Positions 48,540-64,000 of a stretch of DNA of 64,000 nucleotides are shown piece by piece. The stretch is from sequence record PP359696.1; one strand, written 5' to 3'. Both the position numbers and the translations under genes were made by a program. The DNA comes from Escherichia phage Ge15. How positions within the stretch are numbered: the stretch's first letter is position 1; each line of letters starts with the position of its first letter. The notes beneath the pieces are model-generated. The model searched no databases. It was given only the letters and a program-made list of their open reading frames with translations, and was not told the origin of the DNA.

Positions 48540-48589
48540 GTTTACTTTTCCTCTTGACTGTGGTATAATTTTTCTATCAGTTAAGAGGA
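48540..48589 (+). promoter_or_regulatory. T4-type early promoter (GTTTAC, TGGTATAAT) with flanking inverted repeat
   Basis: gtttacttttcctcttgactgtggtataatttttctatcagttaagagg. Confidence 0.7.
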
Positions 48590-48596
48590 GAATAAC

Positions 48597-49058
48597 ATGA
48601 CTATCAACACAGAAGTTTTTATCCGTCGAAATAAGCTCCGTCGTCACTTTGAGTCGGAGTTTCGTCAAATTAACAATGAGATTCGTGAGGCATCAAAAGC
48701 AGCAGGGGTCTCATCGTTTCATCTAAAATATTCTCAGCATCTTCTTGATCGTGCAATTCAACGGGAGATTGATGAGACATATGTTTTTGAATTATTCCAT
48801 AAAATAAAAGATCATGTTTTAGAAGTTAATGAATTCCTGAGTATGCCTCCGCGTCCTGACATTGACGAGGATTTTATTGATGGGGTTGAATATCGTCCTG
48901 GACGTTTAGAAATCACAGATGGAAATCTTTGGCTTGGATTTACAGTTTGTAAGCCTAATGAGAAGTTCAAAAACCCGTCACTTCAATGCAGGATGGCAAT
49001 TATCAACAGTCGTCGTTTACCAGGAAAGGCTTCTAAAGCAGTAATTAAAACTCAATGA
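48597..49058 (+). CDS. regB: Endoribonuclease RegB
   Basis: 153 aa; sequence recognised as T4 RegB. Confidence 0.9.
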   Translation: MTINTEVFIRRNKLRRHFESEFRQINNEIREASKAAGVSSFHLKYSQHLLDRAIQREIDETYVFELFHKIKDHVLEVNEFLSMPPRPDIDEDFIDGVEYRPGRLEITDGNLWLGFTVCKPNEKFKNPSLQCRMAIINSRRLPGKASKAVIKTQ

Positions 49059-49065
49059 GGTAAAC

Positions 49066-49611
49066 ATGAGAAAAGCACTACTCGCTGGTCTATTGGCCAT
49101 TTCAATGATGGCACATAGCTCCGAGCATACTTTCAGTAATGTCCAACTCGATAACATGCGTTACGCGTATCAATTCGGGGAACAATTTTCTAAGGATGGA
49201 AAATATAAAACACACAAAAATATCCACAAGAGCGGATTAGGTCATATAATGGCTGCCATTTTATGGCAAGAAAGCTCTGGCGGAGTTAATTTAAAATCTA
49301 AACCAAAGCATCACGCCTACGGAATGTTCCAAAATTATTTGCCTACTATGCGAGCAAGAGTTAAGGAACTTGGTTATAATATGACCGATGCTGAAATAAA
49401 AAGAATGTTGAATAAACGGTCCAATTCAGCTTCCTGGGCGTACATTGAACTTTCTTATTGGTTAAATATACATAAGGGCGATATAAGAAAAGCAATATCC
49501 TCTTATAATTCGGGATGGAATGTTAAAGCAGGTTCTAAATATGCTTCTGAAGTCCTAGAAAAGGCTAATTACCTTAAAAATAATAAACTTTTGGAAATAG
49601 TAAATGACTAA
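49066..49611 (+). CDS. Secreted protein with lytic-transglycosylase-like motif (vs.1 position)
   Basis: Signal peptide MRKALLAGLLAISMMAHS; WQESSGG...YGMFQ resembles the ES...G..Q transglycosylase motif. Confidence 0.45.
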   Translation: MRKALLAGLLAISMMAHSSEHTFSNVQLDNMRYAYQFGEQFSKDGKYKTHKNIHKSGLGHIMAAILWQESSGGVNLKSKPKHHAYGMFQNYLPTMRARVKELGYNMTDAEIKRMLNKRSNSASWAYIELSYWLNIHKGDIRKAISSYNSGWNVKAGSKYASEVLEKANYLKNNKLLEIVND

Positions 49612-49945
49612 AATTTTGGTTTTATGTATAGGATTAATTTCATTTTCTGCGTTAGCAGATACATCATATACTGAAATTAGAGAGTATGTAAACCGTACTG
49701 CAGCGGATTATTGCGGGAAAAATAAAGCATGCCAAGCTGAATTTGCGCAGAAATTAATATATGCATATAAAGACGGAGAAAGAGATAAATCAAGCAGATA
49801 CAAAAATGATACATTGTTAAAACGATATGCTAAAAAGTGGAATACCTTAGAATGTTCAGTTGCGGAGGAGAAAGATAAAGCCGCTTGTCATTCAATGGTT
49901 GACCGTTTGGTAGATTCTTATAATCGAGGATTGAGTACTAGATGA
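49604..49945 (+). CDS. Secreted cysteine-containing small protein
   Basis: Signal peptide with ALA cleavage site; four Cys. Confidence 0.45.
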   Translation: MTKILVLCIGLISFSALADTSYTEIREYVNRTAADYCGKNKACQAEFAQKLIYAYKDGERDKSSRYKNDTLLKRYAKKWNTLECSVAEEKDKAACHSMVDRLVDSYNRGLSTR

Positions 49946-50421
49946 TTGTAAAATATATCAAGGGCGATATTGTCGCCCTCTTTCTTGAAGGTAATATTAT
50001 TGCGCACGGGTGCAATTGTTTTCATACAATGGGCAGTGGTGTAGCTGGTCAATTAGCAAGAGCCTATCCCAAAATTTTAGAAATAGATAAGACCACAACT
50101 GAATATGGTTCGCGTGAAAAACTCGGTGATATGTCTATTGTTTTTAAACATAAACCTAATGGTTTTGGCATATGTTATAACTTGTATACGCAATACGAAC
50201 CAGGTCCTAATCTTGATTATGGTGCTTTAGTAAACTGCATGATAGAATTAAATCTACAGGCAGAAACCCTTTTGTTTAAACCGGTAATTTACATTCCACG
50301 CATAGGTTGTGGTATTGCTGGCGGCGATTGGGATAAGGTTTCTAAATTAATCGACATGTTTACTCCTGATATTGATTTAATAGTGGTGGATTATGAAAGT
50401 GCATTACCCGCATCCGTTTGA
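49942..50421 (+). CDS. Macro domain protein (ADP-ribose binding/processing fold)
   Basis: KGDIVAL...IAHGCNCFHTMGSGVAGQLARAYP and IPRIGCGIAGGDWD match the two glycine-rich macro-domain motifs. Confidence 0.7.
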   Translation: MIVKYIKGDIVALFLEGNIIAHGCNCFHTMGSGVAGQLARAYPKILEIDKTTTEYGSREKLGDMSIVFKHKPNGFGICYNLYTQYEPGPNLDYGALVNCMIELNLQAETLLFKPVIYIPRIGCGIAGGDWDKVSKLIDMFTPDIDLIVVDYESALPASV

Positions 50422-50605
50422 TCCTAAAAACAAAGCAGTAATTATTCGTCAATGGGAACGCATTTGCCGTACTAAATGTCCAATTAATAGTCCACATGAT
50501 GTAGATAAAGACTACATTGGAACATTCGTTGAATATACCTTTATTGATAAGAAAGGTCGTAAACAACATGTAGAAGAATATTGCTTAAAGGTTACATGGT
50601 TATGA
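50393..50605 (+). CDS. Hypothetical small protein
   Basis: 70-aa ORF. Confidence 0.4.
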   Translation: MKVHYPHPFDPKNKAVIIRQWERICRTKCPINSPHDVDKDYIGTFVEYTFIDKKGRKQHVEEYCLKVTWL

Positions 50606-50626
50606 GCCAAACTAGTATTCTTAAAA

Positions 50627-50809
50627 ATGCCCACTGTGAAAAGTGTAAGTGGCCGGTTGTTTTTTGCTTTATGCAACGATGAAATGGCTTGTGATTTCGA
50701 TTATTGGTGCTATTGTTCTAATAAAGGATGCATCAATCATAAAGGTGAAGGATTTTATTCAGGATTTTACCCTTATCCTGATTTCGTTAAAGAAGGTAAA
50801 CCAAAATGA
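50627..50809 (+). CDS. Cysteine-rich small protein
   Basis: 60 aa with eight Cys. Confidence 0.4.
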   Translation: MPTVKSVSGRLFFALCNDEMACDFDYWCYCSNKGCINHKGEGFYSGFYPYPDFVKEGKPK

Positions 50810-50982
50810 ATGATGATTTAAAATATCAATTATTACGTGAACTTGATGTTTTGATTGAACTTTCTGCACAAAAAGGATTTATAATTGGATCGGGTCAAAA
50901 AGACCCCAACGGTCATTCAATCGTAGCGGTTATGAATCAGAAACGAGTCATTTTAAAACTTTTGGGGATTGACATACTGTGA
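50806..50982 (+). CDS. Hypothetical small protein (58 aa, below ORF-track cutoff)
   Basis: ATG after RBS, open to TGA at 50980-50982, ATGA overlap upstream. Confidence 0.4.
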   Translation: MNDDLKYQLLRELDVLIELSAQKGFIIGSGQKDPNGHSIVAVMNQKRVILKLLGIDIL

Positions 50983-51164
50983 GCCTAAGCAAAGAACAAA
51001 AAGATAAATTGTTTGAGCTTATCCATGAACTTCTAGATGAGCATGCAGAAGCAAACACCTTTTATGATGAATACGGCCCGCTATCTCCCGAACAGCAGGA
51101 AGAATTTGCTGATCGGTTTGATAAGAAAGAAAATGAATTAATAGCTTATGTGAATACGCTTTAA
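50979..51164 (+). CDS. Hypothetical acidic small protein (GTG start)
   Basis: 61-aa ORF overlapping upstream stop. Confidence 0.4.
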   Translation: MSLSKEQKDKLFELIHELLDEHAEANTFYDEYGPLSPEQQEEFADRFDKKENELIAYVNTL

Positions 51165-51173
51165 GAAGGTGAT

Positions 51174-51755
51174 ATGGCGAGTTTAATTTTTACTTATGCA
51201 GCAATGAATGCTGGAAAATCTGCTTCTCTTTTGACTGCTGCACATAATTATAAAGAACGTGGAATGAGTGTATTAGTTCTTAAGCCTGCTATTGATACTC
51301 GCGATTCTGTCTGTGAAGTTGTTTCTCGCATTGGAATTAAACAGGAAGCGAATATTATTACAGATGATATGGATATTTTCGAGTTCTATAAATGGGCTGA
51401 AGCACAAAAAGATATTCATTGCGTATTTGTAGATGAAGCTCAGTTTTTAAAAACTGAACAGGTGCACCAATTAAGCCGAATTGTTGATACATATAATGTT
51501 CCTGTTATGGCTTATGGATTAAGGACTGATTTCGCTGGAAAATTGTTTGAAGGTTCTAAAGAACTTTTAGCGATTGCAGATAAACTTATTGAACTAAAGG
51601 CAGTTTGTCATTGCGGCAAAAAAGCGATTATGACAGCTCGATTAATGGAAGATGGAACACCAGTTAAAGAAGGTAATCAAATCTGTATTGGTGATGAAAT
51701 TTATGTTTCTTTGTGCAGAAAACATTGGAATGAATTAACTAAAAAGCTTGGTTAG
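51174..51755 (+). CDS. tk: Thymidine kinase
   Basis: 193 aa; P-loop NAGKSASLL, VDEAQF and C-terminal Cys zinc motif. Confidence 0.92.
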   Translation: MASLIFTYAAMNAGKSASLLTAAHNYKERGMSVLVLKPAIDTRDSVCEVVSRIGIKQEANIITDDMDIFEFYKWAEAQKDIHCVFVDEAQFLKTEQVHQLSRIVDTYNVPVMAYGLRTDFAGKLFEGSKELLAIADKLIELKAVCHCGKKAIMTARLMEDGTPVKEGNQICIGDEIYVSLCRKHWNELTKKLG

Positions 51756-61038: not shown

Positions 61039-62040
61039 ATGACTCGTAACGAATATATCAAATCATTCAATAGCGTTATTGATGATAAAGCTATACCGAT
61101 GTTTGGTCAAAATATCATTCTTTCTATTATCAATCAATGGCTCAATAGTGTTGATGCAAGTATTGTTTCTTCTGCTAAATTTATTCATGAAATTCGTAAA
61201 ATTTCTAGCCGTGTAGATAAAGATGTTATCAAGAAAACTTTTAAAGAGTCTCGTCTTCTTTCATATTTGGTTAATCGGGATATTCTTGGTAATTTTGGGA
61301 AAGAAATTAAACGAACCAAAGATGTAGTAGGATATAATTGGTTCGGTGATGTTAATTCTTATCATCTTAATAATAAAGAAGACCCTGAGAATATTTTTAC
61401 TCGTCGTTGGATTAGTAATTTCAGACTTTTCAAAGGACAAATTCTAAAATCAGCTTCTAAATTATGTTATGGCGATTATCGTCAAATTCATCCTTTGGCT
61501 TCTGATATGATTATCGTAAAAGAATATGAGCTTGATGAAAATAAAGTAGCTATTTTTGTGAATTATGGATTTTTTACACCAAACGCTAACCAAAAGAATA
61601 TTAATAAATTTTTCTCAATTGCTAGCACTATAACTCGTCAGTTAGAGACTGCATTACTTTGTATGGAAACAGTAGAAAATATTCATACATATCCTTTTAA
61701 GAATATATGCGGATGGGAAGGATATAAAATTATAATTAGCCTTCGTGAAGTGAAACGTACGTACTCACCGACTGATAAAGAAATTTACCAACAAAAATGT
61801 GATGAAATTGTGAATACTCCTAAAGAAGAAACTACCCTTGAAGAACTAATGGAATGTCTTGACGATTCGCCTGAACCGATAGAAATTCGTCCAGAAGTTA
61901 TTGCACTAGAAAAAGCTTATAAAGAAGTTCTAGAAATTTCTAATAAAGCGCAGAAAGAATATGAGAAGGCTAAAAGGATTTGGGAAGAATCTGTTAATCG
62001 CCTTGATCGTTTGGAACAAGCTTTACAGTTAATTAAGTAA
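61039..62040 (+). CDS. Hypothetical protein with C-terminal coiled coil (array member 3)
   Basis: Start trimmed to MTRNEYIKSF after RBS GAGGAG. Confidence 0.5.
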   Translation: MTRNEYIKSFNSVIDDKAIPMFGQNIILSIINQWLNSVDASIVSSAKFIHEIRKISSRVDKDVIKKTFKESRLLSYLVNRDILGNFGKEIKRTKDVVGYNWFGDVNSYHLNNKEDPENIFTRRWISNFRLFKGQILKSASKLCYGDYRQIHPLASDMIIVKEYELDENKVAIFVNYGFFTPNANQKNINKFFSIASTITRQLETALLCMETVENIHTYPFKNICGWEGYKIIISLREVKRTYSPTDKEIYQQKCDEIVNTPKEETTLEELMECLDDSPEPIEIRPEVIALEKAYKEVLEISNKAQKEYEKAKRIWEESVNRLDRLEQALQLIK

Positions 62041-62092
62041 TTTAAAGCCAAGGATGGCTCGGAGTATAAATCATTAACCAAGTGAGAAGAAC

Positions 62093-63022
62093 ATGAAAAC
62101 TCGTAAACATTATATTGATTATTTTGACAGTCTTATTATTAAACACCGTAATTATCAGATCGGACACAGAGCAGTAATCAATAATATTCTTCGTGATTTC
62201 CTTCAATATGTTGGCCAGGAAAATCATATCTGTAAAGATACTCAAAACGCTTATTCTCATTCGTTGGGCAATTTGCTTCAATGGTTTAAACGTTCTCGTA
62301 TGTTATCTTCTACTGTAGCTCGCGATAACATTAAAAACTTTATGAAGCCGAGCTTTATTAAATCTGAGACATCTATAACTGATTTGGTTGAATTTACTAT
62401 TGTTAACGATGTTAAAAAGACCCATTTGGCTGATTGGTTATCTACCATTCCTGAAACTAAATTTGCTGATAAATTTGCTTGTCAATTCAATGACCAAGTG
62501 AATATGCTTTTTAAGCATGCTCGCAAACTATTTACCGCGGGCGATGACCGTACAAATACAGTTCATGTTAAGGACTGGGTTATTGCTGATGAAGTAACAC
62601 ACAAGCCAGGTGGTTCATCAGTATTAATTAATATCCAGGTTCCTTATTATTACTCACGTAATCTCGGCACCATGAACTCTAGAGAAATTAATAAGCACAA
62701 CAAAACTATTCGTTCGTTATCTTATAAACTCCGCATGATGTTAAAAATCATGGACGTAGTAGAAATGTATGACGAAACCGAAGATAATGGTTCAATGTTA
62801 TACAGTTCACGCATTTTAATTAAACTGAAGAACCCTAATACATATAAGACAGTTGTAAAAGAGCCTAAAGTAGAAAAGATTGATAACTTGAGCGAAGAAC
62901 GTGAATACCTCAAATCTCGACTAGTTGAAGTTGAAGCTCAGATTGCCGAACACACTAAATTGTTAAAAGCTCTTAATGCAAAAGCAAATGGTTTACGTAA
63001 TGCTATTGAGGTATTGAAATGA
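62093..63022 (+). CDS. Hypothetical protein with C-terminal coiled coil (array member 4)
   Basis: 309 aa; MKTRKHYIDYF start resembles members 2 and 3. Confidence 0.5.
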   Translation: MKTRKHYIDYFDSLIIKHRNYQIGHRAVINNILRDFLQYVGQENHICKDTQNAYSHSLGNLLQWFKRSRMLSSTVARDNIKNFMKPSFIKSETSITDLVEFTIVNDVKKTHLADWLSTIPETKFADKFACQFNDQVNMLFKHARKLFTAGDDRTNTVHVKDWVIADEVTHKPGGSSVLINIQVPYYYSRNLGTMNSREINKHNKTIRSLSYKLRMMLKIMDVVEMYDETEDNGSMLYSSRILIKLKNPNTYKTVVKEPKVEKIDNLSEEREYLKSRLVEVEAQIAEHTKLLKALNAKANGLRNAIEVLK

Positions 63023-63408
63023 AAAAGCGTCTATTAGAAGATATTGCAGCTTCAAGTAATTCCAGTCTAATTAAAATTATTATGGCTGGTGAAGAAGACG
63101 ATCTGGAAATGCGCGGAAAGATTCATGGTTGTGATGATTTAGATTTTAAACCTCCAGCCTGGGATGCTATTATGGTTATGGTTGAACGTCGCGAAAGGGC
63201 TTCTAAAAACGTTCCTAATTGTCCTGAATGCGGTACTGAACAAGTTCAATTGATTAACTGGCGTAAACCGGAACTTGAATATAAATGCCGTCATTGCAAA
63301 CATAAATTTAGTAAGCATGCTCCGGAAATGGTTAAATTACCTGACTCTACTGAGTTCTTTAAAGAACTTGCGAGTGTTCAACCAATGCCTAATAATATTT
63401 TGGATTAA
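63019..63408 (+). CDS. Zinc-ribbon protein
   Basis: CPECG ... CRHCKHKF four-Cys motif; ATGA-coupled start. Confidence 0.5.
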
Positions 63409-63409
63409 A

Positions 63410-63652
63410 ATGACAAAGCGTAAAGAATATATGGAGACTGCTGAAAAGGCAGTCCGTGAATTAGCAATAGCGTATTATAATGAACATGGTAAATTTCCTG
63501 ATAGATATAGCGTGCTTAAATCTGCTTTAACTCGTTCATATAAAAATATGCTATCAGAAGTAAGTGATATTATATACAAACATAAAGAACAAACAGGTCA
63601 AAGTCTTGATTACGACGAGACTTTTAAACAAGTACTAGGAATTAAGGAATAA
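63410..63652 (+). CDS. Hypothetical small protein
   Basis: Start trimmed to [10 protein letters not shown] just after the upstream stop. Confidence 0.45.
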
Positions 63653-63653
63653 T

Positions 63654-63917
63654 ATGTTTAAAGTATATGGTTATGATAGCAACATCCATAAATGTGTGTA
63701 TTGCGATAATGCAAAACGTCTCTTGACTGTGAAGAAACAGCCATTTGAATTTATCAACATTATGCCGGAAAAAGGTGTTTTTGATGATGAGAAAATCGCT
63801 GAGCTTCTGACGAAACTAGGTCGTGATACTCAAATTGGTTTGACAATGCCACAAGTATTTGCTCCTGATGGAAGTCATATTGGTGGATTTGACCAACTGC
63901 GAGAATATTTTAAATGA
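63654..63917 (+). CDS. nrdC: Glutaredoxin/thioredoxin NrdC
   Basis: 87 aa; CVYC active site; recognised as T4 NrdC. Confidence 0.93.
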   Translation: MFKVYGYDSNIHKCVYCDNAKRLLTVKKQPFEFINIMPEKGVFDDEKIAELLTKLGRDTQIGLTMPQVFAPDGSHIGGFDQLREYFK

Positions 63918-64000
63918 TGCTCGAAGGAAATGACTATATTCATGATTACCGCGGAAGCGCGGTATATGTAGGTGATGAAGTTGCAGTTTATTATGGGTAT
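63914..64000 (+). CDS. 5' end of next ORF, 3'-truncated by window end
   Basis: ATG overlapping nrdC stop (ATGA); open to window end. Confidence 0.35.
   Translation, partial: MMLEGNDYIHDYRGSAVYVGDEVAVYYGY

Follow-up and report, generated by a model that had tools for sequence, protein, structure and literature searches.

What does a lone macro domain do between regB and tk of a T4-like phage? In the window, that is, the whole 64-kb stretch of Escherichia phage Ge15 DNA analysed here, a reading of the letters had placed a 159-aa macro domain protein at this position, with three possible functions: reversal of host ADP-ribosylation, degradation of ADP-ribose-derived defence signals, or tuning of the phage's own modifications. 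The gene does lie between regB and tk, and its adjoining genes are vs and tk.3:

48541..48569, plus strand: sigma-70-like promoter match (TTTACT-17-TATAAT, upstream TG) from a consensus scan, ahead of regB
48597-49058: regB, upstream of tk.4
49604..49945, plus strand: vs, next to tk.4 on the upstream side, coding for the valyl-tRNA synthetase modifier (97% identity with T4 Vs)
49942..50421, plus strand: tk.4/adfM-type gene, ATG start and TGA stop, with a 159-aa product that is one macro domain
50393..50605, plus strand: tk.3 homolog, the downstream neighbour, 96% identical to T4 Tk.3
51174-51755: tk, downstream of tk.4

The order in the window is regB, vs.1, vs, tk.4, tk.3 and, further on, tk, which is the T4 arrangement with tk.4 in the slot between vs and tk.3. 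The vs stop and the tk.4 start share 4 nt (ATGA), and the 3' end of tk.4 overlaps tk.3 by 29 nt. The promoter match ahead of regB is a weak candidate for an early promoter of the co-oriented regB-vs.1-vs-tk.4 run; in the same consensus scan, promoter matches in the region did not exceed those in shuffled controls. No second macro-domain gene was found in the 64-kb window or in positions 1-120 kb of the related genome AdolfPortmann.

The tk.4 product is a genuine macro domain and not a chance similarity. It matches the Pfam Macro family (PF01661) with E=2.4e-8 and 34.4 bits, above the gathering score of 22, over profile positions 2-117 (116 of 118 covered), and its AlphaFold2 model has a mean pLDDT of 94.0 and a pTM of 0.89. 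Foldseek searches of the PDB with this model, a check that the original prediction had proposed, return the solved macrodomains TARG1, BT1257, Poa1p, DarG, and SCO6735 at probability 1.00 and TM 0.70-0.83; MacroD-like viral Mac1 structures rank lower (TM about 0.66). By sequence the top PDB match is BT1257 (E=1.5e-10 with the single sequence, 3e-20 with a profile). Both glycine-rich motifs on which the macro-domain call had been based are present as ADP-ribose-binding loops, the first (HGCNCFHTMGSGVAGQLARAYP) spanning residues 22-43 and the second (IPRIGCGIAGGDWD) residues 118-131, and the call is correct. Relatives of tk.4 occur in 2,768 phage records (tblastn), and the product belongs to PHROG 335 (E=2.5e-71), a family named 'phosphatase'. 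The protein is probably a standalone macrodomain hydrolase of the ALC1/TARG1-like class that is expressed early.

Whether a T4 ortholog was already annotated in this way had been left as a question, and it was. The window product is 58% identical to T4 Tk.4 over 154 aa (E=3e-69), and the annotation 'phosphatase; contains A1pp phosphatase motif' of T4 tk.4 (NP_049723) goes back to the early 2000s, the motif appearing in Nolan et al. 2006 (PMC1524935); several GenBank records name the exact window allele 'macro domain protein'. The window gene is thus tk.4 (adfM) of a T4-like Tequatrovirus, and the macro-domain reading is right but already known. A recent preprint describing HIDEN-SEQ reports that tk.4 was the sole hit of a transposon screen and that its knock-out sensitises T4 to DarTG2; the gene was renamed adfM, for anti-DarT factor Macrodomain (10.1101/2025.11.20.689424). 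Of the functions first suggested, reversal of host ADP-ribosylation, with DarTG-bearing hosts as the test, agrees with these published genetics. T-even phages, Bas35-47 among those assayed, had been described as resistant to DarTG2, with the factor unknown in that paper (PMC11257639); the literature yielded no experiment that challenged Bas44 or the window allele directly with DarTG2. Erasure of a host DNA ADP-ribose mark by a phage macrodomain is already published, so the locus represents no new kind of system. It fits a layered anti-DarTG toolkit of T-even phages, with AdfA and AdfN acting against DarTG1 and Tk.4/AdfM against DarTG2.

The active site can be read from an alignment of 70 relatives, and three segments carry it:

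50005..50052, plus strand: first ADP-ribose-binding loop, H22-Q37 (HGCNCFHTMGSGVAGQ), with invariant columns in the 70-sequence alignment
50179..50193, plus strand: catalytic-position motif N80-L-Y-T-Q84, with Gln84 where K80 of DarG and K84 of TARG1 sit
50296..50331, plus strand: second glycine-rich, diphosphate-binding loop, P119-W130 (PRIGCGIAGGDW), with P119, G122, G124, and W130 invariant

The glycine stretches themselves are MGSGVAG (residues 30-36) and GCGIAGG (residues 122-128), in which G33, G122, and G124 are invariant; across the alignment the invariant residues of the first loop are H22, G23, N25, C26, G33, and A35. Gln84, N25, and H22 are strictly invariant among the 70 relatives, down to 39% identity, and the window allele retains all invariant residues of the family. 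Three independent alignments place Gln84 in the catalytic-lysine column: in the profile-to-PDB alignment 'NlYtQ' stands opposite 'LITK' of TARG1, in hhalign NLYTQ stands opposite NFPTK of DarG (probability 98.7%), and MAFFT places NLYTQ with 'NMIGQ' of SCO6735 and BT1257. N25 shares its column with the loop-1 Asn of DarG and of PhiKZ AdfM, H22 aligns with Poa1p H23, the residue mutated in PDB entry 6LFS, and T29 corresponds in position to Poa1p S30. D125, the second catalytic residue of TARG1, aligns with A126. By motif register, invariant Ala35 presumably stands where MacroD enzymes have their catalytic Asp (N-x6-GGG-V-D motif). A comparison of catalytic residues with DarG and MacroD enzymes, which had been proposed at the outset, thus comes out divided: neither the DarG/TARG1 lysine nor the MacroD aspartate is present, and an invariant glutamine occupies the lysine position, as in SCO6735. 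The active site of the T-even enzyme is accordingly Gln-type, like that of SCO6735, and not of the DarG lysine type.

The best explanation of the gene, which we hold with moderate confidence, is that tk.4/adfM encodes a hydrolase that takes DarT2 ADP-ribose off phage DNA, a substrate that we infer by analogy. The enzyme would bind ADP-ribose placed by host DarT2 on thymidines of phage ssDNA (TNTC motifs); Gln84, N25, and H22 would hold a water molecule and the distal ribose in position, and hydrolysis of the N-glycosidic bond at C1'' would release free ADP-ribose and leave the DNA intact, so that replication could proceed and the abortive defence of DarTG2 would fail. This mechanism is proposed because the T4 tk.4 knock-out genetics combine with biochemistry on a Gln-type and a Lys-type enzyme. 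The Gln-type SCO6735 cuts thymidine-linked ADP-ribose from DNA faster than DarG or TARG1 and relieves the toxicity of DarT, and the Q85A substitution abolishes its activity (PMC9411070). The Lys-type PhiKZ AdfM (gp104) removes DarT2 ADP-ribose from DNA in vitro, and its N23A variant has reduced activity (PMC13309987). The name AdfM is now borne by two unrelated subfamilies, T4 Tk.4 and PhiKZ gp104.

Several points weigh against DNA ADP-ribose removal. The support from T4 comes from one purely genetic preprint, on an allele 58% identical to the window copy. The window protein lacks the extended 'mobile loop' of the SCO6735/BT1257 subclass, which exceeds the loop of DarG or TARG1 by about 5 residues (PMC9411070), and a crude neighbour-joining (NJ) tree groups the Tk.4 clade with Adpp and not with SCO6735 or DarG. 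Adpp, at 39% identity, has the matching signature but a proven activity as an ADP-ribose-1''-phosphate (ADPR-1''-P) phosphatase.

This last point leads to the reading implied by the old 'A1pp phosphatase' label, in which the main substrate is ADPR-1''-P and the protein is an Adpp/Poa1p-like phosphatase that would detoxify or recycle ADPR-1''-P from RES-type NADases (aRES) or from RNA 2'-phosphotransferase reactions. The window protein has 39% identity (E=1e-27) with gp176 of Achelous, the ortholog of Vibrio phage Gary Adpp (Achelous and Gary are 98.7% identical), and the Adpp motifs match, Gln included: HxCNC, NxYxQ, and GCGxAGGDW. Gary Adpp turns ADPR-1''-P into ADPR in vitro, and aRES is not overcome without it (10.64898/2026.01.28.702374). 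In the NJ tree Adpp is the nearest characterised relative of the Tk.4 clade and branches off at the base of the large phage clade to which Tk.4 belongs. Poa1p ranks high among the structural matches, H22 and T29 corresponding to its H23 and S30, and RefSeq, like PHROG 335, calls the family 'phosphatase'. In both reactions a leaving group is displaced at C1'' of the distal ribose, and a single active site could therefore serve both. The active-site residues were tried as a discriminator between a DNA-ADP-ribose hydrolase and an ADPR-1''-P phosphatase and failed: Tk.4-type and Adpp-type proteins share all conserved residues, and the signature therefore cannot separate the two substrates. The same Gln-type signature bears on the annotation of thousands of phage proteins now called 'phosphatase' or 'macro domain'.

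What makes the phosphatase reading unlikely is genomic setting and phenotype. Adpp functions only as a member of the Adps-Adpp-Namat (NARP1-AP) operon, whose products turn the resulting ADPR back into NAD+; Achelous carries Adps-Adpp-Namat, and the window gene instead lies between vs and tk.3. An association with NARP1 was rejected: a tblastn search of the 64-kb window and of positions 1-120 kb of AdolfPortmann for homologs of Adps and Namat detected neither (best E=0.28). Without NARP1 the dephosphorylation of ADPR-1''-P gives back no NAD+. The Adpp loop after the Gln is also 7 residues longer than that of the window protein, and T4 tk.4, the true ortholog, has no known phenotype other than DarTG2 sensitivity.

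A very unlikely alternative to DNA ADP-ribose removal is that the protein, in the manner of MacroD/YmdB or TARG1, reverses protein ADP-ribosylation or deacetylates O-acetyl-ADP-ribose, acting on host marks or on the phage's own Alt/ModA/ModB marks. TARG1 is indeed the best Foldseek match (E=2e-10, TM 0.73/0.82), homologs appear in some sources under the name 'O-acetyl-ADP-ribose deacetylase (regulator of RNase III)', and genes for Alt, Alt2, and two Mod ADP-ribosyltransferases are present in AdolfPortmann; SCO6735 is also somewhat active in removing ADP-ribose from proteins (PMC9411070). However, both catalytic residues of TARG1 are replaced (K84 by Q84, D125 by A126), and a MacroD/YmdB assignment was rejected on the missing Asp and on a score of 16.8 bits against the NCBIfam O-acetyl-ADP-ribose deacetylase model NF001661, whose cut-off is 291. 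The Alt, ModA, and ModB marks sit on arginine, a linkage that macrodomain hydrolases are not known to cleave, and tuning of the phage's own marks is the weakest of the three functions first suggested.

Macro domains bind many ADP-ribose derivatives and the window protein lacks the canonical catalytic Lys, so its action might in principle be non-catalytic, as a sponge or binder of ADP-ribose-derived immune signals (Thoeris gcADPR) or as a stoichiometric inhibitor of DarT2; catalytically dead SCO6735 Q85A still inhibits DarT through interaction (PMC9411070). The invariance of Gln84, N25, and H22 among the 70 relatives instead fits a catalytic site, with the equivalent Gln essential in SCO6735, and two relatives, PhiKZ gp104 and Gary Adpp, are proven enzymes. 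We consider a non-catalytic role highly improbable.

Classification of the product as a DarG homolog or orphan antitoxin was rejected: against NCBIfam NF048014 (PADLOC DarG) the product scores 28 bits where the cut-off is 250, over profile positions 2-138 of 338 and hence over the macro part only, the catalytic Lys and the C-terminal domain are missing, and darT does not adjoin the gene. Among 80 bacterial loci with homologs at 34-43% identity, none had DarT2 within 4 kb (tblastn with a single P. aeruginosa DarT2 probe), which leaves an origin as an 'orphan DarG antitoxin' unsupported; the genes that recur beside these homologs have housekeeping roles (ileS/lspA, rpoC/rpsL/rpsG), and Adps- or Namat-like genes occur at only 3-5 of the 80.

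The window copy of tk.4 departs from its neighbourhood in one further respect:

49980..50417, plus strand: allelic cassette that differs from T4, with both flanks about 97-100% identical to T4 DNA

It shows in a 60-nt identity profile against T4, and the first mismatch with T4 falls at 49980. The window tk.4 protein is 58% identical to T4 and 92.5% identical to Dhakavirus JS98, whereas for the products of vs, vs.1, regB, tk.3, and tk the corresponding values are 95-100% (T4) and 45-74% (JS98). A JS98-like gene amid T4-like flanks argues for gene-precise cassette exchange, and the window copy is, judged by these identities, a JS98-type (Dhakavirus) allele inserted with gene precision into a T4-like neighbourhood. 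The tk.4 gene of AdolfPortmann is 100% identical to the window gene; identification of the window as AdolfPortmann was rejected, since the ends of the window are only 95-96% identical to that genome and the full identity is confined to tk.4. The source of the window is thus a relative of that phage, a mosaic Tequatrovirus. More than 300 sequenced phages carry the window allele.

In the second loop it is the window sequence, GCGIAGG, that matches the family consensus, and T4 GAGIGKG is the outlier. Residues specific to the allele lie at 41-79, at 95-118, and in this loop. It is conceivable, though quite unlikely, that the T4-type (GAGIGKG) and JS98-type (GCGIAGG) alleles, the two common classes of tk.4, are not interchangeable and differ in substrate range, and that the Gln-type clade consists of bifunctional C1''-hydrolases. 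Were this so, the alleles might differ in the DarT2 families or DNA contexts that they serve, or in preference for thymidine-ADP-ribose DNA versus ADPR-1''-phosphate from RES NADases; cassette shuffling among T-even genera would follow from variation in the ADP-ribose-based defences that hosts carry, and the Gln-type phage clade would cover both DNA-modifying and NAD-depleting defence. The window offers a natural second allele in a T4-identical context, ready-made for allele-swap work on substrate specificity.

Compared with known systems, the window protein resembles DarG (PDB 5M31, 5M3I) and PhiKZ gp104 in fold class (TM about 0.73-0.77), in the Asn of loop 1, and in the proposed job, removal of DarT2 thymidine-ADP-ribose from DNA. 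It differs from both in having NLYTQ where they have FPTK with the catalytic lysine, and from DarG also in lacking a C-terminal DarT-binding domain and an adjoining darT; the match to DarG is E=1e-24 for PhiKZ gp104 and 1e-5 for the window protein. Human TARG1/OARD1 (PDB 4J5R), the best Foldseek match, is likewise compact and similar in size and can also reverse thymidine-ADP-ribosylation by DarT, but it is 20% identical, and its dyad K84/D125 is replaced by Q84/A126. Yeast Poa1p (PDB 6LFQ) has HxCNC and the fold in common with the window protein; in the sequence alignment it has Ser and not Gln at the Gln84 position.

SCO6735 (PDB 5E3B) and BT1257 (PDB 2FG1), which are 54% identical to each other, share with the window protein the Gln in place of the catalytic Lys, a GCGLAGG-type second loop, and in loop 1 the His (H22) and the Cys-Asn pair (C24, N25). 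They have Asp at the position of C26, are about 25% identical to the window protein, and are bacterial housekeeping or stress proteins and not phage proteins; BT1257 has a 6-residue insertion after the Gln relative to the Tk.4 family profile, where the window loop is as short as that of TARG1. Adpp shares membership of PHROG 335 and the three motifs with Gln, and differs in operon setting and loop length.

T4 Tk.4, for which anti-DarTG2 activity is known from genetics on the T4 allele only, differs from the window protein by its 58% identity, by the second loop (GAGIGKGNW in T4, GCGIAGGDW in the window; 4 of 10 positions differ), and by a C-terminus that in the window has 4 additional residues and extends 29 nt into tk.3. 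The two genes nevertheless occupy the same slot between vs and tk.3 and are identical over their first 38 nt, and their products share the single-macro-domain architecture, the length class (159 and 155 aa), and residues H22, N25, Q84, G122, G124, and W130.

The macro domain ORF lies between regB and tk, as the original prediction had placed it; on the + strand the gene order is as follows:

48597-49058, + strand, regB
49066-49611, + strand, vs.1
49604-49945, + strand, vs, immediate upstream neighbor of the ORF
49942-50421, + strand, tk.4/adfM-type ORF, intact, ATG start, TGA stop, 159 aa
50393-50605, + strand, tk.3, immediate downstream neighbor of the ORF
50596-50809, small ORF, 70 aa, only a partial 73% match to Dhakavirus JS98
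50806-50982, small ORF, 58 aa, no counterpart in T4 or JS98
50979-51164, tk.2-like small ORF, 61 aa, identity 87% to JS98, 52% to T4
51174-51755, + strand, tk, separated from tk.3 by the three small ORFs

The vs stop codon and the start codon of the ORF overlap as ATGA, and the last 29 nt of the ORF are shared with tk.3. In T4 the tk.4 stop and tk.3 start share ATGA; here (50393-50421) that ATG lies in another frame than tk.4, which runs 29 nt into tk.3. The resulting C-terminal tail is ESALPASV, with its last four residues predicted to be disordered (pLDDT <50).

The protein has a macro fold. Pfam PF01661 matches over nearly the whole profile (34.4 bits; gathering score 22), PHROG 335 matches with E=2.5e-71, and AlphaFold2, given 69 sequences, yields a model with pLDDT 94.0 and pTM 0.89. 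The top Foldseek matches in the PDB are all macrodomains: TARG1, BT1257, Poa1p, DarG of Thermus and of Mycobacterium, and SCO6735 (probability 1.00; TM 0.70-0.83). Both glycine-rich motifs of the original prediction are present, at residues 22-43 and 118-131; its observation is thus confirmed and its interpretation supported, for a gene that was already known. The ORF is the ortholog of tk.4, which occupies the vs/tk.3 slot of T4 (NC_000866), where its annotation reads "phosphatase; Tk.4; contains A1pp phosphatase motif". The exact allele of the window appears as "macro domain protein" in several GenBank records, so the question of whether a T4 ortholog had been annotated in this way is answered in the affirmative. 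The A1pp assignment was noted earlier (Nolan et al., 2006; PMC1524935).

Among 70 aligned relatives, reaching down to 39% identity, H22, G23, N25, C26, G33, A35, N80, Y82, Q84, P119, G122, G124, and W130 are invariant. Q84 occupies the catalytic-lysine column of TARG1 (K84) and DarG (K80) in three independent alignments: the family profile against PDB sequences, in which A126 is the counterpart of TARG1 D125; hhalign against a DarG set (probability 98.7%); and MAFFT with all reference sequences. Comparison with DarG and MacroD/YmdB therefore recovers neither the DarG lysine nor the MacroD aspartate but a Gln-type site. A MacroD/YmdB-type deacetylase is unlikely: the score against that model is 16.8 bits (cut-off 291), and Ala35 is invariant at the position of the MacroD catalytic Asp. 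SCO6735 and BT1257, the latter the best PDB sequence match, form a subclass defined by this exchange of Lys for Gln, although the subclass has a longer "mobile loop" that the ORF lacks. On DNA, SCO6735 removes thymidine-linked ADP-ribose more quickly than DarG or TARG1 do; it also relieves DarT toxicity, its Q85A mutant has no activity, and a water-mediated mechanism has been proposed (PMC9411070). Since SCO6735 is active with Gln at this position, the absent lysine is no argument against DNA de-ADP-ribosylation by the ORF. A purely non-catalytic role as sponge or DarT2 binder is improbable, given that the catalytic-site residues are strictly invariant and that two relatives are proven enzymes.

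DarTG2 resistance of T-even phages was earlier attributed to an unidentified factor, in assays that included BASEL phages Bas35-47 (PMC11257639). In the HIDEN-SEQ preprint (10.1101/2025.11.20.689424), a T4 transposon library was screened on a DarTG2 host with tk.4 as the single significant hit, and its clean knock-out sensitized T4 to DarTG2; the authors renamed it adfM and proposed, on this genetic basis, a role in clearing DarT2-attached ADP-ribose from DNA. The T4 knock-out matches the original suggestion that the protein could reverse host ADP-ribosylation. Whereas the fold, orthology, Gln-type site, and cassette mosaicism are shown by the present data, we infer the substrate, expression timing, and in vivo role of this allele. 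The most likely mechanism, with moderate confidence, is that thymidine-ADP-ribose installed by DarT2 on phage ssDNA would be hydrolyzed by the ORF protein through a Gln-type site resembling that of SCO6735. Expression would probably be early, as weakly suggested by the co-oriented run behind a sigma-70 promoter-like site ahead of regB.

The further suggestion that the protein tunes the phage's own modifications by trimming Alt/Mod marks is unlikely because these marks are arginine-linked. Outside the window, the related Tequatrovirus AdolfPortmann is annotated with Alt and Alt2, two ADP-ribosyltransferases of Alt type encoded in tandem, as well as with two Mod genes (26497-30654 of L005 and 35192-36414 of L006, both from its record), and thus carries several ADP-ribose writers beside a single macrodomain eraser.

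A serious rival to DNA-ADP-ribose hydrolysis is a main role like that of the phage macrodomain Adpp, which converts ADPR-1''-phosphate, the product of aRES NADase defense, to ADPR, from which the NARP1 pathway rebuilds NAD+; in Vibrio phage Gary it is encoded within an Adps-Adpp-Namat operon (2026 preprint, 10.64898/2026.01.28.702374). This operon is also present in Vibrio phage Achelous, whose Adpp (98.7% identical to that of Gary) is 39% identical to the ORF. All three motifs recur in Adpp (as AHQCNC, NVYGQ, and GCGLAGGDW), the main difference being that its loop after the Gln is 7 residues longer, and in a crude NJ tree Adpp is the nearest characterized relative of the large Tk.4-containing phage clade; conserved residues therefore cannot separate the two activities. 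A single active site may, we suggest, serve both, as both reactions act at C1'' of the distal ribose and displace a leaving group there. Against an Adpp-like main role, the ORF lies outside any NARP1 operon, and Adps/Namat homologs are absent from the window and AdolfPortmann 1-120 kb (best E=0.28); without NARP1, dephosphorylation of ADPR-1''-phosphate returns no NAD+.

DarG identity was rejected, as PADLOC and NCBIfam models match the macro half only (28 bits; cut-off 250); the C-terminal DarT-binding domain of DarG is missing, and no darT gene neighbors the ORF. Bacterial relatives (80 loci, 34-43% identity) are standalone homologs with the same HGCNC, YTQ, and GxGxAGGDW motifs, and are widespread, including Ruegeria, Desulfobacter, Hyphomicrobiaceae, and Verrucomicrobia. 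Housekeeping genes (ileS/lspA, rpoC/rpsL/rpsG) are frequent neighbors, and a few of the homologs (on bacterial contigs L014, L032, L035, L038, L046) adjoin Adps- or Namat-like genes. An "orphaned antitoxin" origin is unsupported, given these neighborhoods and the lack of DarT2 within 4 kb at all 80 loci with a single DarT2 probe.

The allele is divergent from that of T4. Its product shares just 58% identity with T4 Tk.4, while the flanking proteins are much closer to T4 (RegB 99%, Vs.1 100%, Vs 97%, Tk.3 96%, Tk 99.5%). A 60-nt profile gives ~100% DNA identity to T4 up to 49979, 38-85% over 49980-50417, and 97-100% again in tk.3. Against JS98 the pattern inverts (Tk.4 92.5%, flanks only 45-74%); the allele was therefore swapped between T-even genera at gene-level precision, and tk.4 is a site of cassette mosaicism. 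The 480-bp ORF has DNA-level matches in 565 phage records. Both types are common: 318 phage records carry the window-type allele at ≥90% identity, and the T4 type is present in 224 at ≥90%, with 159 more at 80-90%. The ORF is 100% identical to that of AdolfPortmann (Bas44, MZ501046); the window ends (1-2000, 62001-64000) are only 95-96% identical, so the window comes from a related mosaic Tequatrovirus.

The 5' junction with T4 directly follows a G+C-rich hairpin at 49961-49979 (AGGGCGAT-ATT-GTCGCCCT; 8 pairs in the scan), ~20 nt inside the coding region and conserved in both T4 and JS98 (local 65-nt RNAfold energy about -14 kcal/mol); its conservation may be purely protein-level, since the stretch encodes the conserved KGDIVAL. 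A second block with little or no T4 similarity, 50598-51170, holds the three small ORFs, among which no counterpart of T4 tk.1 was found.

What remains new is the divergence of tk.4 alleles and the possible overlap of DNA-ADP-ribose hydrolase and ADPR-1''-phosphate phosphatase activities within one phage clade. The name AdfM was also given independently to PhiKZ gp104, which strips DarT2 ADP-ribose off DNA in vitro (Cell Reports, 2026; PMC13309987). With its FPTK motif, PhiKZ AdfM belongs to the true DarG relatives of lysine type, matching 5M3I with E=1e-24 (1e-5 for the ORF), whereas T4 Tk.4 AdfM is Gln-type and Poa1p/Adpp-like; one name thus covers two macrodomain subfamilies, with a risk of annotation confusion.
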